Shown here: piece after piece, positions 4,237-61,034 of the stretch
Position numbering within the stretch: position 1 is the stretch's first letter
Layout: every line of letters begins with the position of its first letter
NCBI GenBank assembly: GCA_040397545.1
Contig: JBBAVV010000003.1
Location: 68,321 to 132,320 of the forward strand
DNA from: Pirellulales bacterium
GTDB lineage: Bacteria; Planctomycetota; Planctomycetia; Pirellulales; UBA1268
Direction of reading: 5' to 3'
Length of the DNA stretch: 64,000 nucleotides
Notes under the pieces: model-generated
The model's database searches: none
The model's input: only the letters and a program-made list of their open reading frames with translations
What the model was told of the DNA's origin: nothing
Position numbers and translations under genes: made by a program

Positions 4237-4246
4237 AGCTCCCCCC

Positions 4247-5665: not shown

Positions 5666-5713
5666 CGGTGGGCCTGCACCTCGGCGGCATCGAGAGGCCG
5701 CGGGGCAGGTCGG

Positions 5714-13281: not shown

Positions 13282-13298
13282 AGGCGGCTCCTCGGAGC

Positions 13299-13718: not shown

Positions 13719-13743
13719 GGCCGGGAGGATACCACGCCACCGC

Positions 13744-36397: not shown

Positions 36398-36504
36398 CGA
36401 TCGATCCAGCGGTCGAAAGGTCGTGACGCCCCGTGCCGAGGAGCGTAGAATGGGGCTTCAGCCCAACGGTCTCCAGACCGCGGGCGTCGCCCGGGGGAGT
36501 GACC

Positions 36505-40026: not shown

Positions 40027-40043
40027 GCGGAGGAACCTGCCCC

Positions 40044-41588: not shown

Positions 41589-43102
41589 GCATGGTTGGCA
41601 CGATCGGCATGACGATGGAGAACCGGCGACGGTGGCTGGCGCTGGTGGTGATGGCGGCTTGGATGCTCATGGGACCAGGGCCTGAGGGAGTGGCCGACGG
41701 CGCGACGGCCCGGCCGAATGTCCTGTGGTTTGTCGTCGACGACATGTCGGCCGACTTCTCCTGCTACGGCGGGAGACGCGTCGCCACGCCACACGTCGAC
41801 CGGCTGGCACGCGAGGGGACGCTCTTCGAGCACGCCTTCACGACGGCGCCGGTCTGCTCGCCGAGCCGCTCGGCGCTGATCACGGGGATGTTCCAGACGG
41901 CGATCGGCGCCGAGCATCACCGCAGCGGCCGCGGCGTGCTGAAGATCGACCTTCCGCCCGGCATCAGACCGCTGCCGGCGATGCTCAAAGACGCCGGCTA
42001 CCACACCTCCATCGGCGACGGACTCGGCGTTGCCGGGGACGGCCAGTTCGGCAAGACCGACTACAACTTCCAGTGGGATCGGGCGATCTACGATGCGAGC
42101 GATTGGGGGGCTCGGCAGCCGGGGCAGCCGTTCTTCATGCAGGTGATGCTCCCCGGGGGGAAGCTCCGCGGCGAATCGATCGAGTCGATCCGGGCGCTCT
42201 CGAAGCGCGCGATCGACACCTTCGGCGCCGCGGTGGGGCCCGACGACGTGGAGCTGCCGCCGTACCTGCCGCGGGATCCGGTCCTCCTCGAAGACCACGC
42301 CGCCTATCTCTCGGCGGTCCGCTTCACCGATGCCCACGTGGGGCGGGTGCTCGCGCGTCTGGAGGCCGAGGGGATCCTCGACGACACGGTCGTGATCTTC
42401 ATGACCGATCACGGCATCAGTCATGCCCGCGGGAAGCAATTTCTCTACGACGAGGGGACACGAATCCCGCTGATCGTCCGCGGCCCGGGGATCCCCCGGG
42501 GTGTCCGCCGCAGCGACCTCGTCATGCAGATCGACCTGGCGGCAATCACGCTGGCGGCCGCCGGCGTGGCGCAGCCGGCATCGATGCAGGCCCGCGATCC
42601 CTTCGCGCCCATCTTCGAGCCGCGCGAGGCGGTGTTTGCCGCCCGCGACCGCTGCGATGAGACGGTCGACCGGATCCGCTCCGTCCGCACGCCAGCGTGG
42701 CTCTACGTGCGGAACTTTCACCCCCGTCGTCCGCACCTCCAGCCCAATGCCTACAAGGATGGCAAGGCGATCGTGCAGCGGCTCCGGGAGCTCCACGCCA
42801 CAGGCTCGCTCGACCCGCTCCAGGAGCAGCTTCTCTTCGCGGCGCAGCGCCCGGAGGAGGAGCTCTATGCCTGGCCGGAGGACCGTCACCAGCTGCGGAA
42901 TCTGGCCGCCGATCCGGCCCATGCGGCTGACCTGGCCGACCTCCGCCGCCGGCTGGAGGGCTGGATGGCGGCCTGCGGCGACTCCGGGCCGGAGCCGGAA
43001 GCGATGTACGACAGCGACATGGCGGTCTATCTGGCGCCGGGGAGGCCGGAGGTGGAGCGGAACATCGCCACGATGAAGGCCTGGTGGGCCGAGGGGAGAT
43101 AA
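41585..43102 (+). CDS. Cys-type sulfatase (arylsulfatase A family)
   Basis: PNVLWFVVDDMSADFSCYGG and the FGly motif APVCSPSRSALITG (C-x-P-x-R), plus FMTDHGIS. The ATG overlaps the DUF1501 stop (ATGA at 41585-41588). Confidence 0.9.
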   Translation: MSMVGTIGMTMENRRRWLALVVMAAWMLMGPGPEGVADGATARPNVLWFVVDDMSADFSCYGGRRVATPHVDRLAREGTLFEHAFTTAPVCSPSRSALITGMFQTAIGAEHHRSGRGVLKIDLPPGIRPLPAMLKDAGYHTSIGDGLGVAGDGQFGKTDYNFQWDRAIYDASDWGARQPGQPFFMQVMLPGGKLRGESIESIRALSKRAIDTFGAAVGPDDVELPPYLPRDPVLLEDHAAYLSAVRFTDAHVGRVLARLEAEGILDDTVVIFMTDHGISHARGKQFLYDEGTRIPLIVRGPGIPRGVRRSDLVMQIDLAAITLAAAGVAQPASMQARDPFAPIFEPREAVFAARDRCDETVDRIRSVRTPAWLYVRNFHPRRPHLQPNAYKDGKAIVQRLRELHATGSLDPLQEQLLFAAQRPEEELYAWPEDRHQLRNLAADPAHAADLADLRRRLEGWMAACGDSGPEPEAMYDSDMAVYLAPGRPEVERNIATMKAWWAEGR

Positions 43103-43216
43103 TTGCCTGTTTCTCTCCCCGCCCCTTGCAAAACCCCCCGGGCGTGGGTTATTGGTAGGTCTAAAGGGTGGGTTAGCCAGGGGTCTGCCGCCGCCCGGTC
43201 TCCGGGAGACCTGTCC

Positions 43217-45937
43217 ATGAGCACCGCATCGACCCGGGAAAAGCTGTTCGCTGCCTTCGCGCGCCGTCTGGGGTATGTCACCGACGGCCAGCTCGAGGTG
43301 GCCTGCCAGGCGCGGCACCGCGACCCGTCGAGGGGGTTGGCCGACATCCTCGTCGCCCAAGGGGCGATTGACGACAGGAATCGGGTCCTCATCGAGGAGG
43401 TCGTGGAGAGCCACCTCGCGCCGCATGCCGGGGACACGGAGGCATGCTTTGCGGGCATCCTCGACAAGGGTTGGGTCCCCGCGGCGCTCTTCGCCGACGG
43501 GTCCGACCTCCCTACGGCGGCCGGTGCGCCGATGGGGCCGGAGCCGCCGGTCGTTGCGTGGGAAGAAGGAAATGCCGACGCCCTCGCCGAGACGGTGACG
43601 CTCGGGAGCTACACCTCCGGCGGGAGCCGCTACGAGCTCCTCGAGCTGAAGGGGTGGGGGGGAATGGGGGAGGTGTGGCTGGCCCGTGATCGCGAGCTCA
43701 ATCGGGAAGTCCTTCTCAAGCAGGTCCTGCCGCAGCTCGCCGAAAACGCGCAGAACCGAGAGAGATTTCTTCGTGAGACGCGCACCGGCGCGATTCTCGA
43801 GCATCCGGGGATCGTGCCGGTCTACGACATCGGCCAGCATCCCGGTGGCCAGCTCTTTCAGGTGATGCGGTATTTCAGGCCTGGTTCGCTTCACAAGAAG
43901 ATCGCCGCCTACCATCTCGCCCACCCCGACGCGATCGATGAGCTGGCCTTCCGGACGCTCCTGGGGCACTTCGCTACCGCCTGCCGGGCGATCGAGTTTG
44001 TCCACACCCGCGGCATCCTCCACCTCGACATCAAGCCGCAGAACATCGTCACCGGCGAATTCGGCGAGACCCAGATCATCGACTGGGGGCTCGCGCAGAT
44101 CACCGACGCCGACATGCTCGGGAAAGTCCACGAGGAGAGCGGGAATCTCGCGAGCGGATCGCCGCGCGGCGACTCGGTGCCGCCCACATCGAGGGAAAAG
44201 CGGACCGTGACCGACGTCTTGCCGCGGGGTCTGCGGGGGACCCCCGCCTATGCCGCCCCGGAGCAGTGGCAGGGGGATCCGAAGGCGCTCGGGCACCGGA
44301 CCGACGTCTACGGCCTCGGGGCCACGCTCTTCGAGATCCTCGCCGGCAAGGCGCCTTTCAAGGTGCCCGCGCCGACGCTTCGAGAGGATGTCGAGATCGG
44401 AAACCTCCACCGGGAAGTGAAGCCGTGGGTGCCGGCGAACCTGCGGGCGATCTGCCGCAAGGCGATGGCGGTGACGCCGGGCGACCGCTACGCCACGGCG
44501 GCGGCCCTCGCCGACGACGTCGACCGCTTCCTCGCCGACGAGCCGGTGGCAGCCTGGCCCGATCCCTGGCGGGTGCGGCTGTGGCGATTCGTCAAGGGCC
44601 ACCGGACGGCCGTGGCGGCGGCCGGCGTACTCCTGGCCACGACGACGGTGGCCCTGGCGATCGGGAACGTGCTCGTGTCGCGGGAGCGCGACGTGGCCAC
44701 GCGCAACGCCGCAATGACGCGCGACGTGATCGCCGACTTCATCGAGAAGGTTGCCGACGACCAGTGGGGAAAGATCCCCGGAACGGGGACGCTCCGGCTC
44801 GACGCCGTGAAGAGCGTCGTCGACAAGTTTCCCGACTTGATCGAGCAGCAGCCCGACAATCCTGACCTGAAGTACGACGCGGCGCTGATCTACCGGCGGT
44901 GCGCGAATCTCTACCGCCTGCTCGGAAAGCTCGACGAGGCGAAGCCGCTCTACGACCAGTCGCGGGAGATCATGGAAAAGCTCGTCGCCGAGCATCCGGA
45001 CGTCGCCCTCTACGGCCTGGGATGGTGCCACAATCTTCTCGAGGAGGCGGAGATCCTCGTCCGGGAATCCGGTCCCGAGCCGGCCCTGCCGACCCTGAAT
45101 GAGGCGCTCGTGGCCGCCGAGCGGAGCGTGGCGCAGTTTCCGCAGCCCTCCTCCGGGGCACGACGAGTACTCGCCCAGGTGCAGATGGATCTCGCCGAAG
45201 TGCTTGTCAATACCGGTAGGGTCGATGAGAGCGTGAAACTTTCGGGAGAGGCGGTGAAGAATTTCGACAACGTCACGGCCCGGGATGCAGACGACGACGA
45301 GGAGACCCGCGTTGTGACGCGGCTCCTTGCCGCGTTGGCGGCGGTCGTCGCCACGAATGCCCGCTCGGAGGCCGATCGGCGGGACGAGGCGAGGGAAATG
45401 GCCGAGAAGGCCGACCGACAGACGGCGGAACTGTCAGCGCAGCACGGCGGCGATCCGAACGTCGACTACGTCCGGGCCCTGGCTCTCGATGAACGGGCCC
45501 GCGTCCTCGGGCTCGACGCCGCGACGGCGGCGGAGGGAGAGAAGCTCGGGAACGAGGCGATCGACAAGCTCCGGGCCCTCGTCGCGAGCGCTCCCGACGA
45601 GGCCAACTTCCGGCCGGCACTCGCCGACATCCTCGTCGATCGGGGTGAAAAACGCCTCGCTGCGGAGAACACCGCCGAGGCCGCCAAGCTCGCCGACGAA
45701 GCGCTCGTCGCCGTCGCCCCCCTCGACGAGCCGACCGGCGCCGCCGAGGCAAAGCGCTCCCTCGCCCGGGCCCACGCCCTCCGCGGCCGGGCCGCCACGG
45801 CCGCCGGCGACGCCGCCGCCGCCAAGACGCATCTTCAGTCGGCGAGGGAGTTCTACGAACCGGCCATGGCCGGAGCACCTGAAAACAAAAAACTCCGCGA
45901 AGAGGCCGCCGAGATCGGGCGGCTCCTCGCGGAGTGA
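43217..45937 (+). CDS. membrane Ser/Thr protein kinase with C-terminal TPR-like domain (paralogue 1)
   Basis: Hanks kinase blocks: GWGGMGEVWLARD..VLLKQV, HPGIVPVYD, HLDIKPQNIV, IIDWGLA, GTPAYAAPEQ. TM segment AVAAAGVLLATTTVALAIGNVLV, followed by a helical repeat region. Confidence 0.9.
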   Translation: MSTASTREKLFAAFARRLGYVTDGQLEVACQARHRDPSRGLADILVAQGAIDDRNRVLIEEVVESHLAPHAGDTEACFAGILDKGWVPAALFADGSDLPTAAGAPMGPEPPVVAWEEGNADALAETVTLGSYTSGGSRYELLELKGWGGMGEVWLARDRELNREVLLKQVLPQLAENAQNRERFLRETRTGAILEHPGIVPVYDIGQHPGGQLFQVMRYFRPGSLHKKIAAYHLAHPDAIDELAFRTLLGHFATACRAIEFVHTRGILHLDIKPQNIVTGEFGETQIIDWGLAQITDADMLGKVHEESGNLASGSPRGDSVPPTSREKRTVTDVLPRGLRGTPAYAAPEQWQGDPKALGHRTDVYGLGATLFEILAGKAPFKVPAPTLREDVEIGNLHREVKPWVPANLRAICRKAMAVTPGDRYATAAALADDVDRFLADEPVAAWPDPWRVRLWRFVKGHRTAVAAAGVLLATTTVALAIGNVLVSRERDVATRNAAMTRDVIADFIEKVADDQWGKIPGTGTLRLDAVKSVVDKFPDLIEQQPDNPDLKYDAALIYRRCANLYRLLGKLDEAKPLYDQSREIMEKLVAEHPDVALYGLGWCHNLLEEAEILVRESGPEPALPTLNEALVAAERSVAQFPQPSSGARRVLAQVQMDLAEVLVNTGRVDESVKLSGEAVKNFDNVTARDADDDEETRVVTRLLAALAAVVATNARSEADRRDEAREMAEKADRQTAELSAQHGGDPNVDYVRALALDERARVLGLDAATAAEGEKLGNEAIDKLRALVASAPDEANFRPALADILVDRGEKRLAAENTAEAAKLADEALVAVAPLDEPTGAAEAKRSLARAHALRGRAATAAGDAAAAKTHLQSAREFYEPAMAGAPENKKLREEAAEIGRLLAE

Positions 45938-46013
45938 AGGAATGGGCGGCTGCAGCCAAGAATTGCTCCGTATGAGACTTTGGCGTTCCCGTATGGCTCA
46001 GGAATACCAGACT

Positions 46014-46394
46014 TTACGGTGTTAGCAACGGTTTCATCGTTATCGTCATTTTTCGACTACCCCCAGGTTTAGGAAGAGAGGTGAATTCCTCTGCGTCAAG
46101 CTCAGCGACGAATTGATTTCCTTCAAGTTTCACACTTAAGAAGCTCGCTGGAGAATCATTGGAACCACTCTTCTTGATGTTCACGGGATTATTATTTTCA
46201 TCCGCGACTGAGATGAAAAATTCTCTTACGGGATTTCCATGGCAGGTGATTACGACGTCGGTCACGTCAAAAATGAGTTTGTAGATTTGTTTCTGTGGTC
46301 TTGAAGCGGTTGGACGGTGACGCGTGGAGGGTTTTCGTGGCGTTGATTTCTTTGTAGTCCCTCGCGCTCTCGCCGCCTTTTTCTTCTTCGCCAT
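46014..46394 (-). CDS. small basic-tailed protein 1 (126 aa): MAKKKK Lys/Ser/Thr/Pro-rich tail plus beta-rich domain
   Basis: AAGGAG lies 8 nt upstream of ATG 46394. A 381-nt frame stays open in DNA of about 40-45% GC, where stop codons are frequent by chance. No signal peptide and no family recognised. Confidence 0.65.
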   Translation of the reverse strand: MAKKKKAARARGTTKKSTPRKPSTRHRPTASRPQKQIYKLIFDVTDVVITCHGNPVREFFISVADENNNPVNIKKSGSNDSPASFLSVKLEGNQFVAELDAEEFTSLPKPGGSRKMTITMKPLLTP

Positions 46395-46730
46395 TGCATG
46401 ATCTCCTTGAAGGGCATCAATCGGGTCATGGCCGACGATCTGGCCGACGATCTGGCCGACGATCTGGCCGACGATCGGCGGGATCGTGCGGGCCCATGAT
46501 AGCGGGGAGTGGTTCACTCTGCACGAGGGGGATGGTCGTAGGTGCCCATCAGCCCCGCCGGATCGAACCCCCCCGCAATCAGGCCGCCAGGAGGGTTCGC
46601 CCGTGTCCTGGGAGCCGGCGTTGCAGGCCAGCGCATCCATGGATGGCAAAGCGTAGCCGGCACCCGAGTGAAGCTTTGGCCCGGAAGGCCAAAGCGAACG
46701 TCGGTCGACAGGGCACGGGCGACCCCGACC
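46378..46730 (-). repeat. conserved GC-rich leader element, copy A (upstream of small protein 1)
   Basis: Aligns by hand with 48286-48613. The 46558-46730 block matches 48441-48613 with 12 mismatches in 173 nt. The 46381-46433 block matches 48289-48341 with 2 mismatches in 53 nt. The element spans the RBS and the first 5 codons. Confidence 0.9.
46430..46477. repeat. 12-bp tandem repeat (GGCCGACGATCT)x4 inside leader copy A
   Basis: Three perfect units plus a fourth with one mismatch. Copy B (48338-48361) carries only two degenerate units. Confidence 0.9.
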
Positions 46731-46796
46731 CCCACCGGGGCCTGCAGCCCTCGGGCTTACCGACGTTTGGTGATCGAACAGCCCCCTGAGCCCGCG

Positions 46797-47633
46797 TCAG
46801 CGCAGCGCCTCCTCGGTCGGGATCGGCCGGCGGCCACGGAGCCGGAAACGGGCCAGGGCGATGAGGCCGGGGATCACGAGCAGCCAGCCCCCGCCGTTCA
46901 AGCAATCCTGGGCCGGAAGGGGAAGGTGGCTCGTGAGGGGATCGAGGAGATCATAGGCCGGCTGGAAGAGGTCGTTGACGCCCTTCCAGCGCAACACAAG
47001 GCGGCGGAGGACGGGGCCTTCGTCGCGCCCTAGCTTCTCGATCTTCTGCTGGAGGGCGGGGAGGCCATCGGGGGCGGCCGCGGCGGCAGCGGCCCGGCGA
47101 TTGGCCGCGGCAACCCGCCGGGGCACCTTCCCGTCGGCTCCCCTCTCGACACCGACGAAGAAACTGAACACCAGCGAGAGCACCGCCATCGCGAAAATAT
47201 TGAGAAACAACTGGCTCAAGAAGACGAGCATCCCGACCCGGAAGGGGATCTTCCAGAGCAGCACTTGAACGACCCCGCCGGCGCAGAGGGCGAAGAGGAC
47301 GGGGAGATAGCGGATCAGCGGCACGTAGCCGAGGACAAACCACTTCAGCCCCATCGGCTCGCGGAGCCAGGTGAGATAGCTGAAGTTGGGGGGGAAGGCG
47401 ATCCCGAGACGCGGATCCTGCATGAGCCGGGCGAAGCCGTAGCCGGAGAGGTCGTAGACGAAGAAGACGGTGAGCCAGACCGCGAACACGGTCTTCGCGG
47501 CGCCGAGGATCGTCGCCGGCCCTTCCTCCGTCCAGAAGGCGGTGGTGCGCATGAGGATGAAGATGGCGATCGGGAGCATGAGCAGCCAGAACAGGATCGG
47601 CAGCAGGCTCGAGTGTTCGATCGACTGGATCAT
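46797..47633 (-). CDS. hypothetical multi-pass membrane protein (278 aa)
   Basis: MIQSIEHSSLLPILFWLLMLPIAIFILM.. is followed by ~6 hydrophobic helices and then a soluble Arg/Ala-rich C-terminus. Codon usage is genome-typical. Confidence 0.7.
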   Translation of the reverse strand: MIQSIEHSSLLPILFWLLMLPIAIFILMRTTAFWTEEGPATILGAAKTVFAVWLTVFFVYDLSGYGFARLMQDPRLGIAFPPNFSYLTWLREPMGLKWFVLGYVPLIRYLPVLFALCAGGVVQVLLWKIPFRVGMLVFLSQLFLNIFAMAVLSLVFSFFVGVERGADGKVPRRVAAANRRAAAAAAAPDGLPALQQKIEKLGRDEGPVLRRLVLRWKGVNDLFQPAYDLLDPLTSHLPLPAQDCLNGGGWLLVIPGLIALARFRLRGRRPIPTEEALR

Positions 47634-47685
47634 GCCGCATCTTGTAGCGGGGGAGTCTGGAAGCTTCGTGGCGGTCGGTGAGGCG

Positions 47686-47858
47686 TCATTTGACGAGCCC
47701 GCTGCTCGTGTCGAGCGTGCTCATGCCGCGCAGCGCCAAGGCGACCGCGTCGGGGTTCGTCGAGAGGCGGCGGGCCTCGGTGCCGGTGATCTGACCGCGG
47801 TTGGAGAGCTCCGTCAGGTGCTGGTCGAAGAGCTGCATGCCATGGATCCGGTTTAATC
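47686..47858 (-). pseudogene. pilT: 3' remnant of a PilT/PilU-type twitching-motility ATPase gene
   Basis: The minus-strand translation ..RIHGMQLFDQHLTELSNRGQITGTEARRLSTNPDAVALALRG..* matches the conserved extreme C-terminus of PilT (..GMQT(F/M)DQ.L..L...G.I..EEA......P..L). An in-frame stop lies ~18 codons upstream, and there is no ATPase core. Confidence 0.6.
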
Positions 47859-48302
47859 GGGGATACTCGCGTTGGTTTTGTAAGTAGTTTCCTTTCTACG
47901 GAAGGGTGGAGTGGTCCGTCCCGCCAGGATCGTGATTTTTAGTTTACCCGTGCCACGCAATTCGATCGATCGCCGCGAAATCCCAGTCACTTTTATAACA
48001 AATTGACCGGGTGTGCTGTCCGAAAATGAAACCTTGTCATTGGGAATCGGGTGTGTGGCTTGTGTGTCATCATCTGTGAACACAAGCACGTTTGTGTCAC
48101 TGTAAACGGCTGGGTTGGAGAGATTGCTACCCATTACTGTAAACCAGAAGTTGTCCTTGCTGAGGGGGATGGCCTCAGGATCAGTGCTGTAGATTACGGG
48201 CGCTAGAACTGTCGGGTTGGTCTTCGGGGCCTTCTGTTTGCCGGACCCCGAAGTTGTCTTCGGGTGAGAGCGTTTGGCAACTGCTACTTTCTTCTTCGCC
48301 AT
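47853..48302 (-). CDS. small basic-tailed protein 2 (149 aa): MAKKK tail plus IPT/TIG-like beta-sandwich
   Basis: AAGGAG lies 8 nt upstream of ATG 48302. The 450-nt frame is open in ~45-48% GC DNA. PVIYSTDPEAIPLSKDNFWFTVMGSNLSNP resembles the first strands of IPT/TIG Ig-like domains. Confidence 0.65.
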   Translation of the reverse strand: MAKKKVAVAKRSHPKTTSGSGKQKAPKTNPTVLAPVIYSTDPEAIPLSKDNFWFTVMGSNLSNPAVYSDTNVLVFTDDDTQATHPIPNDKVSFSDSTPGQFVIKVTGISRRSIELRGTGKLKITILAGRTTPPFRRKETTYKTNASIPD

Positions 48303-48613
48303 TACATGATCTCCTTGAAGGGCATCGATCGGGTCATGGCCATCGATCCGGCCGACGATCGGCGGGTCGTGCGGGGCCATCATAGCGGGGAGTCGGGCAC
48401 CCGGCACGAGGGGGGCGCAAAGAAGTGTCGAACGGCGCTACCGGATCGAACTCCCCCGTAGTCAGGCCGCGAGGAGGGGTCGCCCGTGTCCTGGGAGCCG
48501 GCGTTGCAGGCCAGCGCAGCCATGGATGGCGAAGCGCCGCCGGCACCCGAGTGAAGCTTTGGCCCGGAAGGCCAAAGCGAATGTCCGGCGACAGGGCACG
48601 GGCGACCCCGACC
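48286..48613 (-). repeat. conserved GC-rich leader element, copy B (upstream of small protein 2)
   Basis: Paralogue of 46378-46730. It contains an 18-bp long-range stem (48476-48493 with 48592-48609) and a 9-bp hairpin (48556-48578). Confidence 0.9.
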
Positions 48614-48826
48614 TGCCGCTTCGGCCCGCAGCACCCGGTCCCCGACGTTGCAGGTTGCGGCGATCGGGATCGGCAGCGCCCCGGGGGAAGAGGCCGCACC
48701 GAACGGTGGATGCGGGCCATCATAAGGGGTGACGAGCGGTCCGCGCGGGGGGTAATCTTTCCGTGGCGTTGGCGGGCGGGATCCCCCCCGACGGTCGTCG
48801 ATCGATCACTTCACTGAGGTGCACCC

Positions 48827-51475
48827 ATGCCGACCGACCCGACCCGAGGCCTTCTGTGTGCGATCTTCGCAATCCACCTCAACTTCATCACCCGCAACCA
48901 ACTTGCGGCCGCGATCGCCGAGTGGATCCGGGATCCGGCGCGCGCGATCGCCGAGATCCTCGTCGCGCAGAAGGCGATCGACCCACGGACGCGGGAGATC
49001 GTCGAGGACGTCGTGGCCCGGCATCTCGAGCAGCATCACGGGGATGTGGAGCAGAGCCTCGCCACTCTCGACGCCAAGGGGCTGATCCCGCCGGAGCTCG
49101 CCTCGGTGCTCGGCGACAGCCTGACCTCCGAAGCCCGCCCACCGGCATCGGCGGGGGCCGAGGCGAGCACCCCGGTCTCGCTCGACGGCTACGCCTCCGG
49201 GGGAACGCGCTACCGGGTGTTGGGGCCGCAGGAGCGGGGGGGGATGGGGGAGGTGCTCGTCGCCCGCGATCTCGAGCTCGGCCGCAAGGTGCTTCTCAAG
49301 CAGCTCCCCGATCGCAACGCCGACGACCCGGGGCACCGGGCCTCCTTTCTCAAGGAAATCCTTGCCGGCGCGGCGCTGGAGCATCCCAACATCGCGCCGG
49401 TCTACGACATCGGGCAGTATCCGGGGGGGCGATTGTTCCAGGTGATGCGGTTGATCCCCGGCGGCACGCTCGCACGGGCGATCCGCGATCATCACGCCTC
49501 CGGCGGCGCGGTGCCGGTGGCCGGGAGGATGCTCCGCTTTCGCGAGCTCCTCGGGCACTTCGTCGATGCCTGTCAGGCGATCGAGTATGCCCACAGCCGC
49601 GGGGTGCTCCACCGCGACATCAAGCCGAACAACATCATGCTCGGGTCGTTCGGCGAGACGCAGGTGATCGACTGGGGGCTGGCCCGCATCGCCGGGCACG
49701 ATCTCTCCGCCGGGAAAGGATCACCGGAAGAGCTCATCTCGCCCGCCGACATCGGGGAGGATTCGCAGCCGACGAAGGAGGGGCAGTTCAAGGGGACGCC
49801 GGCCTATGCGAGCCCCGAGCAGGCGGATGGAAAGCAAGACCTGATCGATGCCCGCAGCGATGTCTACGGCCTCGGGGCGACGCTCTATTGCCTCCTCACC
49901 GGCGAGGCGCCGTTCCATGTGCGGTCGCCCCTGATCCTCGACGACGTCAAGAATGGGAGGTTTCCCCGACCGCGGCTGATGCGCGCCGACGTTCCGCCGG
50001 CGCTGGAGTCGATTTGCCTCAAGGCGATGGCCAAGGCCCAGAAGGATCGGTACCAATCGCCGCGCGACCTGGCGACGGATGTCGAGCGCTGGCTGGCCGA
50101 CGAGCCGGTCCTCGCCCATCCCGATCCCTTCTCCGTTCGGCTGCGGCGCTGGGGGCTGCGGCACCGCACCGCCGTCGCCGCGGCCGCGGCGCTCCTCCTC
50201 ACGAGCGTCGTCGGCCTCGGCATCGGCTATGCGGCGGTCAAGGAGCAGCGCGACGTGGCGGAGAAGAGTACCGATCTGACACTCACCGCCATCGAGGACA
50301 TCGTCATCGAGATCGGAGATGATTCGTGGGTCCAGGATCCTGAATCGCTCCCGCGACGACGGCAGGCAGTGGAACGTGCCATCGAGATGTATGAGGACGT
50401 CTTGCAGTCAGACTCGAGGAATAGCCGCGCCACACAGGGGCTCAATAACGCCCGACAACGCAAGGGGTTCCTGGAGAGACTCAGCGGGGATGATTCCCTC
50501 GCGATCGAGAGCTTCAAGAAATCGATCGAGGGCTTGGAGCAGCAATTGGAATCGAGTCTGAAAAATCCCATCGACTTCCGGGACATCATCGCTACCCGTA
50601 GTGACATGGCGATGGCATTGCTCTTTTCCGAGGGTTCGGCAGCGGCGGAAAGTTTTCAGCGGCAGACGTGCGAAAGGGCCGCAGCCGTTTTGAAAAATGA
50701 ACCGGAATCGCAGTTGGCGAAGGAGATGAATGCCTGTGCTGAACGAGCGCTTGCCAGCATCCTCGAAGCGGCTGGAAAGACCGAAGACGCCGTGGCCTTG
50801 ATGGTGCGGAGCGCCGATACCTATTCGGAGCTCGCAGCAGATGACGAAGGACTTCATCAGCAGGCCTTCCGGGCCTGCACGTTGCGGGCGGAGTCGGCCC
50901 GTTGCTATCGACGGCTCGGCCGACTCGACGAGGCTCGGAAAGCCGCGAAGATGGCAAGGAACCTCAATGAGGGATTGATGGCTTTTGGTGTTGATTTCGT
51001 TGACTTGCGGCAGGCCAATGCCCTGACACTTCGCGAGCTGGCGATGACGGTCGATGAGCCTGCCCGAGCCGAAGCAGACGAAATGCTCCGCGATTCATTG
51101 GGGATCTATGACCAGCTGATGAAGCTGAATAGGAAGATCTGGCGATATCAACGCGATTTCTCCGAGACGTACGTTGATCGTGGTCGGATGCGACTCCAAA
51201 ATGCCGACGTCGAGGGCGCCGAGCGCGATGTCGATGCCATCCTGAAAGAGTGGCAAGCGACGGATTGGCCTCCTGCGGCACGGGCCCAGACCTCGGCGCG
51301 GTTGTTTGCCTTGAGGGGCCTGATTGCCGAACAGCGGGGGGATGAACCGCGGGCGCGCGAACTGTTGAAGTCGGCACTCGAACACTGCGTTGAATCGCGT
51401 CGCTTCGGGTTCGGTGTGATCGCGGATGTCGAAGCCGAGGTCGGCCAGCATCTTGAACGGCTCGGATCGCCGTAA
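48827..51475 (+). CDS. membrane Ser/Thr protein kinase with C-terminal helical-repeat domain (paralogue 2)
   Basis: Kinase blocks: ERGGMGEVLVARD..VLLKQL, HPNIAPVYD, HRDIKPNNIML, VIDWGLA, GTPAYASPEQ. TM segment AVAAAAALLLTSVVGLGIGYAAV. The N-terminal ~70 aa are similar to kinase 1. Confidence 0.9.
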   Translation: MPTDPTRGLLCAIFAIHLNFITRNQLAAAIAEWIRDPARAIAEILVAQKAIDPRTREIVEDVVARHLEQHHGDVEQSLATLDAKGLIPPELASVLGDSLTSEARPPASAGAEASTPVSLDGYASGGTRYRVLGPQERGGMGEVLVARDLELGRKVLLKQLPDRNADDPGHRASFLKEILAGAALEHPNIAPVYDIGQYPGGRLFQVMRLIPGGTLARAIRDHHASGGAVPVAGRMLRFRELLGHFVDACQAIEYAHSRGVLHRDIKPNNIMLGSFGETQVIDWGLARIAGHDLSAGKGSPEELISPADIGEDSQPTKEGQFKGTPAYASPEQADGKQDLIDARSDVYGLGATLYCLLTGEAPFHVRSPLILDDVKNGRFPRPRLMRADVPPALESICLKAMAKAQKDRYQSPRDLATDVERWLADEPVLAHPDPFSVRLRRWGLRHRTAVAAAAALLLTSVVGLGIGYAAVKEQRDVAEKSTDLTLTAIEDIVIEIGDDSWVQDPESLPRRRQAVERAIEMYEDVLQSDSRNSRATQGLNNARQRKGFLERLSGDDSLAIESFKKSIEGLEQQLESSLKNPIDFRDIIATRSDMAMALLFSEGSAAAESFQRQTCERAAAVLKNEPESQLAKEMNACAERALASILEAAGKTEDAVALMVRSADTYSELAADDEGLHQQAFRACTLRAESARCYRRLGRLDEARKAAKMARNLNEGLMAFGVDFVDLRQANALTLRELAMTVDEPARAEADEMLRDSLGIYDQLMKLNRKIWRYQRDFSETYVDRGRMRLQNADVEGAERDVDAILKEWQATDWPPAARAQTSARLFALRGLIAEQRGDEPRARELLKSALEHCVESRRFGFGVIADVEAEVGQHLERLGSP

Positions 51476-51536
51476 TCCGCGTTGGCAGTCAGCGCGGAGG
51501 ATTTGGATCGGGATCTCGGCCGGTGATGGGCTCGCG

Positions 51537-51591
51537 CCGACCGATGACCTCGCCAGCCCAAGCGTCGGCACGAGGTGAGGTCATCGGTCGG
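51537..51591. terminator. perfect 15-bp inverted repeat between convergent genes (candidate bidirectional terminator)
   Basis: CCGACCGATGACCTC (51537-51551), a 25-nt loop, then GAGGTCATCGGTCGG (51577-51591). No obvious U-tract. Confidence 0.45.
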
Positions 51592-51641
51592 TCAGTCGAG
51601 AGCGCGCCTGGCAGGCATCGGCCACCATCCGCTCCGGACGG

Positions 51642-51818
51642 CTATTTGCCGATGACCTTCCGTTTGCCGCCTCCGATGGGAACTTGCTGTGGGGAGTCGA
51701 CGTCCTCGCGTGGCCCCCTCGGCTTGCGGGCTACCTTCTTCACGGCCTTCTTGGTGACCTTCTTCGTCACCTTCTTCGCCGCGGCGGGCTTCTTCTTCGC
51801 GGCCTTCTTCTTCGCCAT
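51642..51818 (-). CDS. small Lys/Ala-rich histone-H1/AlgP-like basic protein (58 aa)
   Basis: MAKKKAAKKKPAAAKKVTKKVTKKAVKKVARKPRG.. with AGGAG 10 nt upstream of the ATG. Low-complexity KK(A/V)(T/A)KK repeats resemble bacterial H1-like proteins. Confidence 0.55.
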   Translation of the reverse strand: MAKKKAAKKKPAAAKKVTKKVTKKAVKKVARKPRGPREDVDSPQQVPIGGGKRKVIGK

Positions 51819-52033
51819 GATCCATGACTCCTGCAGAACGTTCGATGGGCGCCCGATCGCCGACGGCGATCGTGGATGATCGTTTTCGTACCACACGCAC
51901 GGGGGAAGCGACAACGGCCCGGCGTGGTGCAAAGCGCGAGGCTCGCCGCCCGGAGCCCCACCCGGATCCGGTCGACGGGATACCCTGTCGGGTGCGTCCT
52001 GTCGTGCTTCGCTCCCGGCCCCCGATCGATCCC

Positions 52034-54802
52034 ATGCCCCACCTCCACTCCTGTCTCCGTTTCGCGCCCCTTCTCCTCGCCCTCCTGTTCTGGCCCGGCC
52101 GCACGTCGGCTGCCGACGAGCGCCCGGTCGTCGTGGCTGACTTCAGCACCCCCGCGCACGGCTGGCGAGCCAACGGCTCGATCGGCGGTCTGGCGGAGGG
52201 GGCGGATGGGCTGTCGATGATCTGCCGGGGAGAGGATCCCTATCTCGTCGGGCCGGTCGTCGATCTCCCTCTGCCCCCCGGCGCCCGCAAGCTCCTGCTC
52301 GAACTCGAAGGGAGCGCGGCAGGGGATGTCCGCTGCTACGCCGCGGCCGAGGGGAAGGAGTTTGCCGAGGGGTGGGCAGTGAATCTCGTCGCCGACGGCA
52401 CGGGGACATTTCGCGGGGTGCTGCCGGCGCTCGGCGAGCGCGTCCGATTCCGGCTCGATCCCCCCGACGGCGCTGTCCCCGTCCGCCTCGGACGGCTCGT
52501 CGCCACGCCTCTGATCCCGCTCGCCCCGGCCCCCCCGGCCGGCCGCCCCGCGCCGCTGATCCTCCCGGGCGACGCCCTGGTGGTGAAGCAGGGGGGGGTA
52601 AGCGTGGCTCACGATCCGCACCGCTGGAACGCCCTCTCGATCTCGATCGGCGGCCGGCGGATGGCCGACAGCAATCCAGCCGAGGTGTTTTCCTCTCGGG
52701 GGGCGGCTGGTGGAATCCCCGTCGATGCCGGCGCCGGGGGCGTCGTGTCGCGGGTGCTGGCGGAGGGATTCGAGATCGTCGCCACGGTGCCCGAAGAGGG
52801 CGACGGGGCCGCCACCTGGCGCTTCAGCCGGCGGTTCACGGCCGCCGAGCGCGGCGTGCGCATCGAGACTCTCGTTGAAGTCGACCGGCCTCGCGAGCTG
52901 ATCCATCTGCCGTGGCTGACGCTCTTTGCCGGCCGGGGAACGTTCGGCACGGGCAAGTCGCAGGCGCTCCTGCCGGGGGTCGAATACCTCGACGACGAAC
53001 CCTCTTCGAACGACAAGGAGATCCGCGGGCCAGCCGCGAACCGGCAGCTTGTCGATCCTGCCAAGGTTTGCTTTCCATCGATGGTCCTCGTCGCCGCTGG
53101 GCGCTGGCTGGCGGTCGACTGGGAGCCGGGGGCCGTCCCGGCCTCCCCCCTCTTCGATTCCCCCGATCGGATGTTCGCGTCCGGTGGCCATGTTCTCGGG
53201 CTCTGGTCGCCAGCGGCAGGGGCCTTCGAGCCGCTGCCGCCGCGCTTCGAGGGGGAGCGGGAGATCTACCGGGGTGTCATGCTCGAGCCTGGCAAGGCGG
53301 TGCGCCAGGCGATCACGATCCGCGGCGGCGGCGGCGATACGGTCCTCGCCGCGGTGGCCGAGTGGGTCCGCGTCGAGGGGCTGCCGCCACTCCCCGCCAG
53401 CGCCCCCGGGGCCGATGGCGGCCTCGAGGCCGCCTGTCGGCTCCTCGCCCACGGCTGGCTCGATTCCACCGCGCGCGACGGCACGACCTGGCGCCACGCC
53501 GTCTGGCAGGGGCGCTTCGCCGCACAGCCCGCCGCCGATGCGCCGGCCTGCATGCTCTGGCTGGCTGCGCATGTCGGCGATGCGCCACTTGCCGCGCGGC
53601 TCCGTGCCACGGCGCATGAAGCGCTCGCGGCGCTGCCGGCAGGGGCCACCGGGGGCATCGGTCATCTCGCGCGGCCGGCGCTGCCGCTCCTCCTGCGCCC
53701 CGCGGTGGCCGATGACGCCGCCGTCGGGCTGGCGCTCACGGCTGCGGCGGCGCAGGCCCGGGCGATCGCTGCCGAACTGACGGCAGCGGGAGGGAAGGAT
53801 CGCTACGTCGCCGGCCCGACCGACTACGCGGCGACGCTCGGGGGAGACGGATGCAACGGCCACACCGCCATTCGGGCCGAGGCCCTGCTCGAGGCGGCGG
53901 TTTTGGGGGGGGACGAAGCGGCGATCGGTGCGGCCCTCGCCGCGCTCGATGGAGTCGCGGTGGCCTGGCCGGCCGGCGCCGTGCCGCGTGGCGCGCAGCC
54001 TTGGGAGATGCCGCTCCACACCCCCGACATCCTCGCCTCGGCCCGGCTCGTGCGCATCCATCTCCTCGGCCATCTCCTCGATGGCGATCCGGCCCGGCTC
54101 GAGCAGGCCCGACTGTGGGCCTGGTCGGGCGTGCCGTTTGTCTATCTGCGGGATCCGCTCCCCGGGCCGGTGGGGCGCTATGCCACGATCGGGGTTCTCG
54201 GGGCCACCGATTGGGTGGCGCCGGTGTGGATCGGGCAGCCGGTGCAGTGGTGCGGGCTGGTCTATGCCGGCGCCCTCCACGACCTCACCCGCGCCACCGA
54301 CGGCGCCGCCGCAGAGCCCTGGCAGACGCTCGCCCGCGGGATCACGCGGAGCGGACTGCAGATGACGTTCCCGATCGATGACGCGGCCGGTCGCGGTGGC
54401 CTCCTCCCCGACTATTGGCTGTTCGGATCGAACTGCGGCGCCGGGCCGGCGATCAACCCGGCCACGGTCCAGGCGACGCTCGCCGAGGCCTTCGAGGCCA
54501 CGCCGCTGGTGACGGCGACGCGCCTCACCGGGAGCCCGACGGATTCAGCCGGCCACGTCCTCCATCTTCCCGGTGTGGTGCGCCGCGCGACCTCCACCGC
54601 CGCCGCGACCACCGTCGAGGTCATGCTCTGGCCGGAGGAGCCGAGCCGGCTGATCCTGACGCGTGTGACGCGGCTCCCGCATGCAGTCGTCTGGAATGGA
54701 CTGCCGATCGAGGCCCGCCTCCTGGCCACCGGTTGCTTGACGGTCACCGTCCCCGGTCAGGACGGGGCCCGTCGCGCCGGCACGCTCGTCATCGAGTGGT
54801 GA
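52034..54802 (+). CDS. large secreted hypothetical protein (922 aa)
   Basis: Signal peptide MPHLHSCLRFAPLLLALLFWPGRTSA, consistent GC3-rich coding throughout, and no family recognised. The track start at 51824 is an upstream over-extension. Confidence 0.7.
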   Translation: MPHLHSCLRFAPLLLALLFWPGRTSAADERPVVVADFSTPAHGWRANGSIGGLAEGADGLSMICRGEDPYLVGPVVDLPLPPGARKLLLELEGSAAGDVRCYAAAEGKEFAEGWAVNLVADGTGTFRGVLPALGERVRFRLDPPDGAVPVRLGRLVATPLIPLAPAPPAGRPAPLILPGDALVVKQGGVSVAHDPHRWNALSISIGGRRMADSNPAEVFSSRGAAGGIPVDAGAGGVVSRVLAEGFEIVATVPEEGDGAATWRFSRRFTAAERGVRIETLVEVDRPRELIHLPWLTLFAGRGTFGTGKSQALLPGVEYLDDEPSSNDKEIRGPAANRQLVDPAKVCFPSMVLVAAGRWLAVDWEPGAVPASPLFDSPDRMFASGGHVLGLWSPAAGAFEPLPPRFEGEREIYRGVMLEPGKAVRQAITIRGGGGDTVLAAVAEWVRVEGLPPLPASAPGADGGLEAACRLLAHGWLDSTARDGTTWRHAVWQGRFAAQPAADAPACMLWLAAHVGDAPLAARLRATAHEALAALPAGATGGIGHLARPALPLLLRPAVADDAAVGLALTAAAAQARAIAAELTAAGGKDRYVAGPTDYAATLGGDGCNGHTAIRAEALLEAAVLGGDEAAIGAALAALDGVAVAWPAGAVPRGAQPWEMPLHTPDILASARLVRIHLLGHLLDGDPARLEQARLWAWSGVPFVYLRDPLPGPVGRYATIGVLGATDWVAPVWIGQPVQWCGLVYAGALHDLTRATDGAAAEPWQTLARGITRSGLQMTFPIDDAAGRGGLLPDYWLFGSNCGAGPAINPATVQATLAEAFEATPLVTATRLTGSPTDSAGHVLHLPGVVRRATSTAAATTVEVMLWPEEPSRLILTRVTRLPHAVVWNGLPIEARLLATGCLTVTVPGQDGARRAGTLVIEW

Positions 54803-54828
54803 GCGGCGCGGGCGCAGCCCCGGGGCGA

Positions 54829-56151: not shown

Positions 56152-56279
56152 GACTCGCTCCAGACCAAGGGGAGGGGGCGACCAGGGCCTCCAAGCATAG
56201 TTGATCCCCTTCCGGTCAAGCGGACGCGCGTGGCCCCACCCGGCCGCCGCACGCGCCCTACCCTGGGCCGGCGACGGAG

Positions 56280-56309
56280 TTGCAACCCGCGCGGCAGCGG
56301 AGCGACAAT
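56280..56309 (+). promoter_or_regulatory. sigma70-like promoter candidate for the third PSCyt/DUF1553 gene
   Basis: TTGCAA (56280-56285), an 18-nt spacer, then GACAAT (56304-56309), ~45 nt upstream of ATG 56356. Support is motif match only. Confidence 0.3.
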
Positions 56310-56355
56310 CATGGTTTGGCGAGGTGAGGGGTTTTTTCTGAAGGAGCGTCGCGGC

Positions 56356-59547: not shown

Positions 59548-59551
59548 CACC

Positions 59552-61012: not shown

Positions 61013-61034
61013 CGAAGGGGCGGCCCGGCGCGGC

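Follow-up and report, generated by a model that had tools for sequence, protein, structure and literature searches.

Allelic hypervariability of a small-protein gene beside a receptor kinase gene in a planctomycete locus

The main feature of the locus described here, absent from the earlier note on this DNA, is the allelic hypervariability of a small gene, S, behind a constant promoter-like block and leader. The window is a stretch of 64,000 nucleotides from a Pirellulales bacterium. Comparison of metagenome assemblies from a single clade of uncultured freshwater Planctomycetes shows that this locus varies from strain to strain within the clade, and that its constant core consists of the receptor kinase gene K1 and one small gene, S, arranged tail to tail. 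The earlier note had described two paralogous kinases interleaved over 8.6 kb with three small proteins starting MAKKK, a membrane protein, and a pilT remnant, and every element lies where it was placed:

43217–45937, plus strand: K1, a receptor-type Hanks Ser/Thr kinase with a cytoplasmic N-domain, the kinase domain, one transmembrane (TM) helix (residues ~464–489), and a periplasmic TPR-like domain
44933–45460, plus strand: periplasmic variable segment of K1 (residues ~573–748), found as discrete alleles
45940–46380, minus strand: replaceable S cassette at its native site (K1–S spacer and S1 from around codon 6 through its stop)
46014–46394, minus strand: S1, a type 1 S of 126 aa
46395–46531, minus strand: S1 leader and promoter-like block, conserved across all S types
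46593–46726, no strand assigned: palindromic element, copy 1, lying upstream of the S promoter; 134 nt, bounded by 18-nt terminal inverted repeats
46797–47633, minus strand: M, a 278-aa polytopic membrane protein
47686–47838, minus strand: pilT 3′ remnant (last 50 codons)
47839–47852, minus strand: junction between S 3′ spacer and pilT (rearrangement scar), with ~14-nt overlap
47853–48302, minus strand: S2, a type 2 S of 149 aa, the displaced second copy
48303–48415, minus strand: S2 leader and promoter-like block (copy 2), a duplicate of the S1 copy
48476–48609, no strand assigned: palindromic element, copy 2, 134 nt
48827–51475, plus strand: K2, a paralogous receptor kinase of the RD type (HRD); its TM helix spans residues ~447–472
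50258–51472, plus strand: periplasmic domain of K2, an idiomorphic segment
51642–51818, minus strand: S3, a 58-aa Lys/Ala-rich, H1-like peptide, its gene convergent with K2

The sequence ATGGCNAARAARAAR occurs exactly three times in the 64 kb, at the starts of S1, S2, and S3, and not once in 100 shuffles. The proposal that two kinases and three small proteins form a three-part module did not survive comparison with other loci: they are not a unit, the core is the K1–S pair, and the layout stems from recent rearrangement.

Variable S genes behind a constant front

All loci share a syntenic block of DUF1501, sulfatase, K1, S, and p925. The interval between K1 and p925 is a hotspot of gain and loss, in which M, pilT, Pk551, p273, K2, and S3 are variably present across loci; S is retained at all of them, despite the loss of neighbors. 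The minimal loci L014 and L035 lack M, pilT, and K2 and still carry the K1–S pair, and L021 keeps S in the absence of M and pilT. Recombination around the locus is mosaic, with a sulfatase dS of 0.10 versus a K1 dS of 0.32 in L022.

Beyond the promoter-like block, leader, Shine-Dalgarno site, and codons 1–5, all of which are conserved, S splits into at least five to seven types. Between the window and L025, DNA identity is 97.6% in K1 and 97.8% in M; across 45940–46380 it is at random level (15–47% per 40 nt), with sharp breakpoints, one at the stop of K1 and the other near codon 5 of S. Relative to the window, K1 orthologs are 69–90% identical, M 89–93%, the sulfatase 82–95%, and S 29–77%. 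The dS of S ranges from 0.4 to >2, compared with 0.1–0.4 for the flanks, and its GC3 is 0.46–0.80 versus 0.85–0.89 for the neighbors (S1, GC 0.46 and GC3 0.46; S2, GC 0.51 and GC3 0.57). S dN/dS values lie between 0.19 and 0.70 (type 2, 0.19–0.32; types 1 and C reach 0.5–0.7). Judged by sequence divergence, the comparisons show S alleles to be under purifying selection and apparently older than both their flanks and the rest of the genome. The types are shown to be deeply diverged alleles of one design, a tail followed by an Ig-like sandwich, and they appear to be exchanged via homologous recombination in the conserved flanks. Long-term balancing or diversifying selection would be expected to give such an allele pattern; alternatively, the high dS and low GC3 could reflect a foreign origin or a local mutation or repair regime.

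A conserved Shine-Dalgarno sequence, AGGAGA, lies 7 nt ahead of the S1 ATG (46402–46407). The leader is ~82 nt long and in S1 contains a 12-nt tandem repeat in four copies (46429–46476), and the promoter-like block CCCCCTCGTGC..CTCCCCGCTATCATGG is located at 46494–46531. Both block and leader are kept in all S types, including those of the distant L014 and L035, and their conservation exceeds that of many coding regions, also where K1 identity is down to 50%. Leader and block show no stable RNA fold, there is no Rfam match, and no terminator-like site was found between S and K1. The leader and block of S2 share 81–86% identity with copy 1 and 82–83% with the region orthologous to them in L001 and L004. 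S1 and S2 both start with MAKKK because a noncoding upstream stretch of ~350 nt, ending at codon 5, was duplicated (81–86% identity). The palindromic element is found only at this site among the loci; it is missing in L006, L007, and L014, where the flanking sequences GGGGTCGCCC and CTCCT are contiguous.

The S proteins comprise 125–150 aa, with a polycationic disordered tail of ~30–35 residues at the N-terminus and one Ig-like β-sandwich. Word-index searches covering 5.8 billion proteins, together with a complete HMMER scan over 1.84 billion representatives, return ~25 small homologs in all, plus Ig repeats within giant proteins. These include P0001–P0004 and L031 for S1 (type 1) and P0005–P0011, which are 53–99% identical, for S2 (type 2). 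S has no relatives in Pfam, NCBIfam, PADLOC, PHROGs, or PDB, and was found nowhere but at the syntenic site described here, in at least 16 contigs. All placeable homologs are convergent to a K1 ortholog, and the spacer from the K1 3′ end to the convergent MAKKK gene is 26–196 nt for every K1 ortholog whose 3′ end is on the contig. The check proposed earlier, for co-localization of MAKKK ORFs with kinase–TPR genes in relatives, is thus positive, with pairing that persists down to 50% K1 identity (at least 16 contigs). All of these loci represent one syntenic block in one clade, so adjacency is indistinguishable from inherited synteny. The small ORFs had been taken for genes, and this is borne out by their homologs, by ORFs of 126–151 codons that are intact in every lineage and type with length and architecture preserved, and by dN/dS of 0.2–0.7.

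BLASTP detects no similarity between the S1 and S2 proteins; profile comparisons connect types 1, 2, C, and F at 69–99.6% probability. Types D and G have in common with other S proteins only the start, the tail character, and a short C-terminal motif, and may be unrelated genes put in place of S. Most types feature a GKLxITI-like strand near the C-terminus. The AF2 model of S1 (pLDDT 71) has a disordered tail and β-strands from residue 37, and that of S2 (pLDDT 71, pTM 0.62) a disordered tail and a β-sandwich. Foldseek matches the S2 model to generic Ig domains (E = 2e-4), and the S1 model gives weak, nonsignificant matches to donor-strand pilins (E = 0.06–0.5). As the earlier note had stated, the small proteins have no signal peptide and their tails are rich in Lys/Arg and Ser/Thr/Pro: no hydrophobic stretch is present in S1, S2, or S3, S also lacks a hydrophobic helix and a lipobox, the first 35 residues contain 9–14 Lys/Arg and almost no acidic residues, and the S tails are predicted to be disordered. 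Of the comparison with H1-type tails, this polycationic character is supported; the H1-type motif [ST]Px[KR] is found in no more than roughly one S protein in two. The tails differ between S types; within type 1 they are near-invariant to residue 25, with the domain ~30% conserved.

Receptor kinases and S3

The Pfam search identifies a Pkinase domain in K1 (1.5e-27, plus TPR_12) and in K2 (2.4e-28), with weak TPR matches in both, and no FHA or other phospho-binding domain at the locus. K1 is a non-RD kinase (HLD) whose catalytic motifs VLLK, HLD, DWG, and APE are kept among orthologs, and its hydrophobicity profile has a single cluster of 19-mers at residues 464–471. K2 retains its catalytic motifs. 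Their proposed paralogy, including the shared N-terminal region, is confirmed by 37% identity over the full length (E = 1e-138).

Both periplasmic parts are variable. Residues 573–748 of K1 fall into three allele classes, with 86–99% identity within a class and 53–65% between classes; outside this segment the compared orthologs are 85–99% identical. Residues 1–477 of K2 are 85–100% identical to K2 of L011 and L021, compared with 8–33% for residues 478–882, and blastn homology ends at 50267. Neither the K1 segment classes nor the K2 sensor allele is linked to S type, and no K1 region co-varies with it. Of the earlier idea that the small proteins are partners of the adjacent kinases, the gene pairing is upheld.

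S3 is a separate kind of gene, outside the S family and tied to K2; the three small proteins grouped together in the earlier note are not of one kind. The K2–S3 pair is kept wherever the K2 3′ flank is readable, namely in L011, L015, L020, L021, and the window. S3 has no β-domain, a different upstream region, and a normal GC3 of 0.86 (0.46–0.57 in S1 and S2), and its only family match is a weak one, to a PHROG.

Known systems and competing explanations

Mycobacterial HupB is phosphorylated by Ser/Thr kinases and provides a precedent for Hanks kinases modifying basic tails. GarA and OdhI are small Hanks kinase substrates with a disordered phospho-acceptor N-tail and a β-sandwich FHA domain. S has the same layout, a disordered Ser/Thr N-tail of ~30–45 residues followed by a β-sandwich of ~100 residues, but it lacks an FHA signature or Pfam match and is hypervariable, whereas GarA is highly conserved. 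The variable regions of type IV pilin (pilA) and flagellin are loci of allelic replacement. Like them, S combines conserved expression signals and N-terminus with a divergent low-GC remainder, apparently swapped via conserved-flank recombination, and its alleles fall into discrete groups; unlike them, it has no prepilin leader, hydrophobic helix, or secretion signal, and belongs to no pilin or flagellin family.

Basic-tailed proteins associated with the nucleoid or polyphosphate include Chlamydia Hc2 (PMC2848022), Streptomyces DdbA (PMC3643593), and Pseudomonas AlgP (PMC9239181). What S has in common with these and with HupB is a low-complexity tail rich in Lys, which may or may not be joined to a folded domain; S3 is of the pure Lys/Ala-repeat kind. 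S differs in that its folded part is an Ig-like sandwich without known relative, its predicted tail is N-terminal, short, and type-specific, and it is idiomorphic, which none of the four is. Membrane-spanning Ser/Thr kinases with periplasmic TPR arrays have been described in Planctomycetota (PMC11032199). K1 and K2 share their architecture: the Pkinase domain is cytoplasmic, there is one TM helix, and the TPR-like domain at the C-terminus is predicted to face outward. The passages searched in that source make no mention of gene neighbors; in K1 and K2, by comparison, the periplasmic parts are discrete alleles in near-identical backgrounds. In the Brassicaceae S-locus, the receptor kinase SRK and the small basic protein SCR/SP11 are under balancing selection (PMC2045110). 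There, as here, a small basic hypervariable protein is encoded next to a receptor Ser/Thr kinase whose extracellular part is hypervariable, and the alleles appear older than the lineages carrying them. SCR, however, is a secreted protein that evolves together with the tightly linked SRK, whereas S lacks a signal peptide and is of a type unlinked to the K1 or K2 sensor allele; the likeness is to be read as analogy only, not homology.

The best overall explanation, to which we give about an even chance, is a hypervariable cassette beside K1 that encodes a cytoplasmic S with a polyanion-binding tail and a variable recognition domain. S would be cytoplasmic and probably well expressed, its tail would bind DNA, RNA, or polyphosphate, and its variable Ig domain would form a recognition surface in a conflict, either with phage or among strains, whose pressure would also diversify the periplasmic domains of K1 and K2. 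K1 may also phosphorylate the S tail, going by adjacency alone. Counting against this explanation, hypervariability is commoner in surface-exposed than in cytoplasmic proteins, and because S type is unlinked to the sensor alleles, a common selective agent is an assumption. The earlier model, in which the adjacent kinases have S1, S2, and S3 as their dedicated substrates or partners in the cytoplasm and tail phosphorylation switches nucleic-acid binding, seems to us rather unlikely. It has parallels in HupB phosphorylation and the GarA tail/FHA switch of mycobacteria, and is favored by the invariant K1–S pairing (at least 16 contigs, minimal loci included), the K2–S3 pairing, the Ser/Thr/Pro-rich disordered tails, the retained catalytic motifs of both kinases, and the near-invariant type 1 tails. 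Adjacency, however, says little within a single syntenic block of one clade, and the kinase and small genes are convergent, without co-transcription. Moreover, no K1 region follows S type although the tails do, the H1-type motif is missing from about half of the S proteins, phospho-binding domains are absent, S3 is unrelated to S, and the model leaves unexplained why a substrate should be idiomorphic.

Inherited synteny alone is likewise an improbable account, with S a fast-evolving, dispensable, lineage-specific gene in a recombination-prone islet between K1 and p925, diversified by relaxed constraint and imported divergent alleles and without functional tie to the kinases. The gain/loss hotspot, the mosaic recombination seen in L022, dN/dS up to 0.5–0.7 in types 1 and C, and a low GC3 that suggests poor fit to the genome codon regime are in keeping with it. 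Yet S is never lost while its neighbors are, its upstream region is conserved beyond many coding regions at 50% K1 identity, ORF length and architecture are the same across all types, and type 2 dN/dS (0.19–0.32) is well under 1. We consider it quite doubtful that S is exported nonclassically as a surface-exposed phage receptor, adhesin, or filament subunit, hypervariable like pilins, flagellins, and periplasmic kinase domains. The conserved N-terminus and sharp cassette edges do recall pilin and flagellin loci, the adjacent variable parts of K1 and K2 are extracytoplasmic, pilT and a membrane protein are often neighbors, and the S1 model weakly matches donor-strand pilins; these matches are not significant, however, S lacks a signal peptide, hydrophobic helix, and lipobox, it persists in L014, L035, and L021 without M and pilT, and we know of no secretion signal of such a form. 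Hardly any credence attaches to the idea that the small ORFs are untranslated and that the upstream element drives a noncoding or antisense RNA into the K1 3′ end. An upstream region conserved above the ORF, the convergent layout with its 26–196-nt spacer, and the absence of a detected terminator-like site would suit it; the intact ORFs, dN/dS <1, the conserved AGGAGA, confident β-sandwich predictions from shallow alignments, and the lack of an Rfam match or stable fold do not.

Rearrangement in the window

M contains several hydrophobic segments, has no match in Pfam, NCBIfam, or PADLOC, and is missing from L014 and L035; it is an accessory neighbor. The pilT remnant recognized earlier is indeed one: at the DNA level it matches, with 93% identity, the final 156 nt of pilT in L011, a full TIGR01420 member (426.7 bits). 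In direct sequence comparison, homology to the L001 S 3′ spacer reaches 47827 and pilT homology begins at 47841. Mapping against L011 and L001 shows that the leader-plus-S unit was duplicated and that a deletion took most of pilT along with p273 and a third kinase, which is why the window holds two S alleles. The interleaved layout is derived rather than ancestral, and L015–L018, which are independent assemblies, have the same arrangement as the window.

Gene content and neighbourhood of the locus

The analysis identifies a locus that encodes a hypervariable small protein without annotation, next to receptor kinases that are themselves idiomorphic. An earlier note had proposed a module of Ser/Thr kinases with TPR repeats and small, basic-tailed proteins starting MAKKK, the latter acting as nucleoid-associated kinase substrates or partners. 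Its observations are confirmed and its interpretation is partly supported. The gene order and coordinates that it claimed agree with the map of open reading frames.

Open reading frames of the locus (window coordinates)
43217-45937, + strand: K1, receptor-type Hanks kinase
46014-46394, - strand: S1, small protein, native copy (type 1)
46797-47633, - strand: M, 278-aa membrane protein
47686-47838, - strand: pilT remnant, 50 codons
47853-48302, - strand: S2, small protein, displaced second copy (type 2)
48827-51475, + strand: K2, receptor-type Hanks kinase
51642-51818, - strand: S3, small protein

The three MAKKK starts are genuine, with ATGGCNAARAARAAR occurring three times in the window, exactly at the starts of S1, S2, and S3, and in 0 of 100 shuffles. 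These proteins had been described as devoid of signal peptides, and indeed none contains a hydrophobic 19-mer or the prepilin leader and N-terminal hydrophobic helix of a type IV pilin. The paralogy of K1 and K2 extends over their full lengths (37% identity, E 1e-138) and includes the N-terminal region as proposed, an N-domain of ~110 residues in both, for which no sequence relatives of solved structure were found.

Both K1 and K2 are Hanks-type kinases according to their Pkinase (PF00069) scores of 97.1 and 99.7 bits (cut-off 31.7). DWG replaces DFG in each, and the remaining catalytic motifs are intact: VLLK, HLD, and APE in K1, which is therefore non-RD, and HRD in the RD kinase K2. K1 reads GILHLDIKPQN near residue 266 (about 44012-44044), and 12 of 14 orthologues are likewise non-RD. 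One hydrophobic helix follows each kinase domain (K1 ~464-489, K2 ~447-472). The TPR matches are weak, with 32.7 bits for TPR_12 in K1 and all K2 matches below the Pfam cut-off. Both proteins have the architecture of receptor Ser/Thr kinases with a predicted periplasmic TPR region, the same order of cytoplasmic kinase, transmembrane helix, and periplasmic TPR that PMC11032199 describes as common in Planctomycetota.

The related loci (L-numbers) come from metagenome assemblies of one clade of freshwater Planctomycetes. Every S gene that can be placed (S denoting the small gene tail-to-tail with K1) converges on a K1 orthologue whose stop is 26-196 nt away, always within a block of the order DUF1501, sulfatase, K1, S. 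Co-localisation, proposed earlier as a check, holds within one clade, where each K1 gene with its 3' end on the contig has a convergent MAKK(K) gene; the reverse search of metagenomes from the kinase N-domain yielded 12 further loci. The K1-S pair is thus conserved in one clade. The interval between K1 and a conserved gene of ~925 aa (p925) differs between lineages.

Layouts from K1 to p925 in related loci
L014, L035: K1, S, p925
L021, L020: K1, S, M, K2, S3, p925 (the L025 contig ends within K2)
L011: K1, S, M, pilT, kinase-551, p273, K2, S3, p925
L001: like L011, without K2 and S3
L031, L032: like L011, contig ending within kinase-551

S is the sole element of this interval that is never missing. 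S3 is retained beside K2 at every locus with a readable K2 3' flank. It consists of Lys/Ala repeats only; with unexceptional codon usage (GC3 0.86) and an upstream region unlike theirs, it is a different gene from S1 and S2. The possibility that S3 is a truncated S was rejected because its upstream region is unalignable beyond the start codon and its codon usage is normal.

The contig carrying L001 and L019 (CAMARC010000029.1) is titled as a 'Candidatus Kuenenia stuttgartiensis' MAG. This label looks wrong, given a G+C content of 68% and synteny with the other freshwater Planctomycetia loci. The DUF1501-like protein upstream of the sulfatase in the window (39969-41588, + strand) has a perfect fourfold GREAPF tandem repeat near its N-terminus.

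Constant expression module, replaceable coding cassette

Relative to the window, K1 is 69-90%, M 89-93%, and the sulfatase 82-95% identical, vs 29-77% for S. BLAST sorts the S proteins into at least five clusters; counted as named types there are seven, and these do not track the flanking genes: K1 of L006 is 90% identical and its S 45%, and the corresponding values for L021 are 90% and about 33%. In L025, K1 and M DNA are 97.6% and 97.8% identical to the window and positions 45940-46380 only 15-47% per 40-nt stretch; identity breaks off at the stop codon of K1 on one side and near codon 5 of S on the other. The dS of S alleles is 0.4 to >2, vs 0.1-0.4 in the flanks, at a dN/dS of 0.19-0.70. 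The alleles thus predate the genomes in which they occur and encode constrained proteins. GC3 is 0.46-0.80 in S and 0.85-0.89 in its neighbours. We infer that alleles too divergent to recombine with one another escape GC-biased conversion; the alternative is that low GC3 reflects a foreign origin. As for a diversity-generating retroelement, Pfam annotates no neighbour in any locus as a reverse transcriptase, and there is no template-like repeat of S within 9 kb.

The kinases vary in a similarly discrete manner. K1 residues ~573-748 (44933-45460), in the periplasmic domain, form three classes, with 86-99% identity within and 53-65% between classes; the rest of K1 is 85-99% identical. In K2, residues 478-882 (50258-51472) share 8-33% identity with L011 and L021, vs 85-100% for residues 1-477. 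The boundaries of these periplasmic alleles are sharp, and that of K2 lies directly after the transmembrane helix. The locus thus holds three separate idiomorphic segments within 8 kb (S, the K1 sensor, and the K2 sensor), two of them outward-facing.

Upstream of S1 and S2 lies a repeat of ~350 nt with 81-86% identity, which is non-coding because of a 25-nt indel. It ends exactly after ATGGCGAAGAAGAAA; beyond codon 5 the DNA of the two genes is unalignable, and the proteins show no BLASTP similarity. Alignment with relatives resolves the repeat into a promoter-like block with its leader and a palindromic element. The block reads CCCCTCGTGC.GGG-N10-CTCCCCG.TATGATGG and is followed by a leader of ~82 nt with AGGAGA 7 nt before the ATG. 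Block and leader are kept in every relative, even where K1 is only 50-69% identical. The expression module is constant and its coding cassette is replaceable.

The palindromic element, located upstream of the S promoter, has 18-nt terminal inverted repeats GGGGTCGCCCGTGCCCTG; within it are a hairpin, GCTTTGGCCTTCCGGGCCAAAGC, and a 12-nt palindrome, CATCCATGGATG.

Copies of the 134-nt palindromic element in the window
46593-46726: upstream of S1
48476-48609: upstream of S2

Among the window and 36 loci, it is seen only upstream of S; L006, L007, and L014 have a clean empty site, and in L011 (8243-8756) its left flank is tandemly triplicated. The element may represent a MITE; alternatively, it may lie behind the M operon as a terminator or insulator. 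It accounts for the modest fold z-scores of the upstream repeats (-3.75 and -2.1). A structured, tRNA-like, or tmRNA-like RNA in the ~350-nt repeat was rejected, since Rfam gives no match at E <= 1 over 42000-53000, ARAGORN finds no tRNA or tmRNA in the upstream region, and the S leader folds no better than shuffled controls (z of about 0).

The S1 leader contains four tandem copies of the 12-nt unit GATCGTCGGCCA (46429-46476), and all other loci have two degenerate copies. A conserved ATGATG opens a possible upstream reading frame of 16-23 codons (MMAPHDPADRRPDRWP, then a stop), intact in 9 of 16 loci. The 12-nt repeat of the S1 leader lies within this frame and would add in-frame DRRP units. 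Elsewhere the frame or its stop is lost, by fusion to S in S2, L006, and L035 and by running on in L014, L025, and L031. Clustering of GATC in the leader as a methylation switch was also rejected, given a window-wide density of 11.9 per kb and other 100-nt windows that are as rich.

The S protein family

Among 5.8 billion proteins, S1 has 4 and S2 has 7 homologous clusters. Searching 1.84 billion representatives with a profile added three small proteins at greater distance, the other matches being only Ig/fn3 repeats of giant proteins; after a second profile search, the small proteins numbered about 25 in all. S has no match in Pfam (E <= 0.1 for S1 and S2), NCBIfam (E <= 0.01 for both), PHROGs, PADLOC, or PDB sequences. 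A phage origin was rejected on the grounds that PHROGs gives no match and IMG/VR no relatives of the type 1 or type 2 profiles.

All S types share the start and a tail with 9-14 Lys/Arg per 35 residues (3 in type G) and almost no acidic residues, and most have a GKLxITI-like strand near the C-terminus. With regard to the earlier comparison with histone H1, the Lys/Arg richness is universal, and the H1/SPKK-type motif [ST]Px[KR] occurs in about half of 26 S proteins (TPRK in S1, none in S2). When profiles are compared, types 1, 2, C, and F are linked with probabilities of 69-99.6%, and no relation of types D and G to other types is detected beyond short motifs.

AlphaFold models, built from shallow alignments, predict a disordered tail followed by a β-sandwich (S2 pLDDT 71, pTM 0.62; S1 pLDDT 71). 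With Foldseek, the S2 model matches generic Ig domains at E 2e-4 (TM 0.36-0.5) and, at E 4e-3, IPT proteins of phages; the S1 model gives no significant structure match. HMMER weakly links the S2 profile to Ig and fn3 repeats in giant proteins, and Pfam reports no Ig or TIG match for S. An FHA domain like that of GarA is not seen in S1 or S2, neither having a Pfam or NCBIfam match and the Foldseek matches being Ig-like. Judged by sequence, S is a real, narrow, unannotated family with a basic tail and a putative Ig-like domain.

Origin of the layout and possible functions

The earlier note treated the interleaved kinases and small proteins as a unit, a view that comparison with L011 and L001 does not uphold. 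In relatives, pilT is preceded by an unannotated protein of 273-309 aa and a third Ser/Thr kinase of 534-551 aa with a C-terminal kinase domain (L011 3742-6215; L001 5002-7595); in L011 the genes for this protein and the kinase share an overlap of 4 nt. The window lacks this entire operon. The absent segment, L011 3326-7197, comprises p273, the third kinase, and about 312 codons of pilT, and its place is occupied by a second copy of the leader plus S, namely S2. Only the last 50 codons of pilT remain, so the window encodes no full-length PilT/PilU ATPase (TIGR01420), whereas the L011 orthologue is a full member (426.7 bits vs a cut-off of 319.1). Homology of the S2 copy to the 3' spacer of L001 S overlaps the start of pilT homology by ~14 nt (47827-47841), which reads as the signature of a duplication junction followed by deletion. 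The duplication is derived, and with it the interleaved module. Four independent assemblies share the layout, which is therefore not an assembly artefact.

HupB and GarA provide precedents for small kinase substrates, and the idea that S is a substrate of K1 is compatible with the data. The adjacency of S and K1 agrees with it, within one syntenic lineage only; against it stand the lack of K1-S co-variation, an H1-type motif that is not universal among S proteins, and the absence of a phospho-binding domain. Independent variation of K1 and S also argues against lock-and-key pairing of S with the K1 sensor; such co-evolution was rejected, as the S types are scattered across all three classes of K1 sensor and follow no other part of K1 either. 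Nor is the locus part of an anti-phage defence system by PADLOC, which sees the generic kinase domain alone: K1, K2, and the third kinase (Pk551) match PD-T4-6 and mad6 through that domain only, and S1, S2, S3, M, p273, and p992 have no match.

Three idiomorphic segments in 8 kb, two of them outward-facing, suggest a conflict or recognition interface. Lacking a hydrophobic segment, S is probably cytoplasmic; the variability of its putative Ig-like domain points to a role in recognition, and its tail may bind a polyanion, as judged from composition and from analogy with Hc2, DdbA, and AlgP (PMC2848022, PMC3643593, PMC9239181). The closest organisational analogy is the plant S-locus (PMC2045110), although the missing linkage and an S protein without a signal peptide oppose its logic here. 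One speculative reading, which we regard as improbable, is a bacterial recognition system under balancing selection, in which the idiomorphic sensors of K1 and K2 and a constantly expressed S with an idiomorphic Ig domain would set strain identity or phage/toxin-sensing specificity; S would serve inside the cell as a variable adaptor or decoy, with K1 controlling its polycationic tail. Such a system could be likened to receptor-kinase/small-protein S-loci, or to non-RD pattern-recognition kinases, in a prokaryotic version made from an undescribed protein family.

Discrete patterns of ancient alleles usually mark the interfaces of bacteria with phages or with one another. To our knowledge, almost nothing is known of such interfaces in Planctomycetes, or of the stimuli perceived by their very large sets of kinases. 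Should the allelic picture hold, the locus is a clean natural case of a cytoplasmic-looking protein for which numerous ancient, discrete alleles are maintained behind a promoter that does not vary, next to receptor kinases whose outward-facing domains are likewise kept as discrete alleles. If synteny alone is involved, it is an ordinary lineage-specific flexible islet. The locus defines a new protein family, with a basic tail, a putative Ig-like domain, and no annotated relatives, and offers a small, defined experimental target, a single 440-bp cassette.

Elsewhere in the window, A strongly outnumbers T on the + strand at 11500-14000 (AT skew 0.28; 381 A vs 213 T in 12001-14000), and nothing comparable is seen in the remaining sequence. 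Two direct 93-nt GC-rich copies (217-309 and 341-433) are 99% identical and lie 124 nt apart. Three paralogous sets of PSCyt/PSD-type and DUF1501-type genes, a pairing typical of Planctomycetes, occupy 1800-5700, 36000-41600, and 54800-62800, with DNA repeats that are 66-78% identical.
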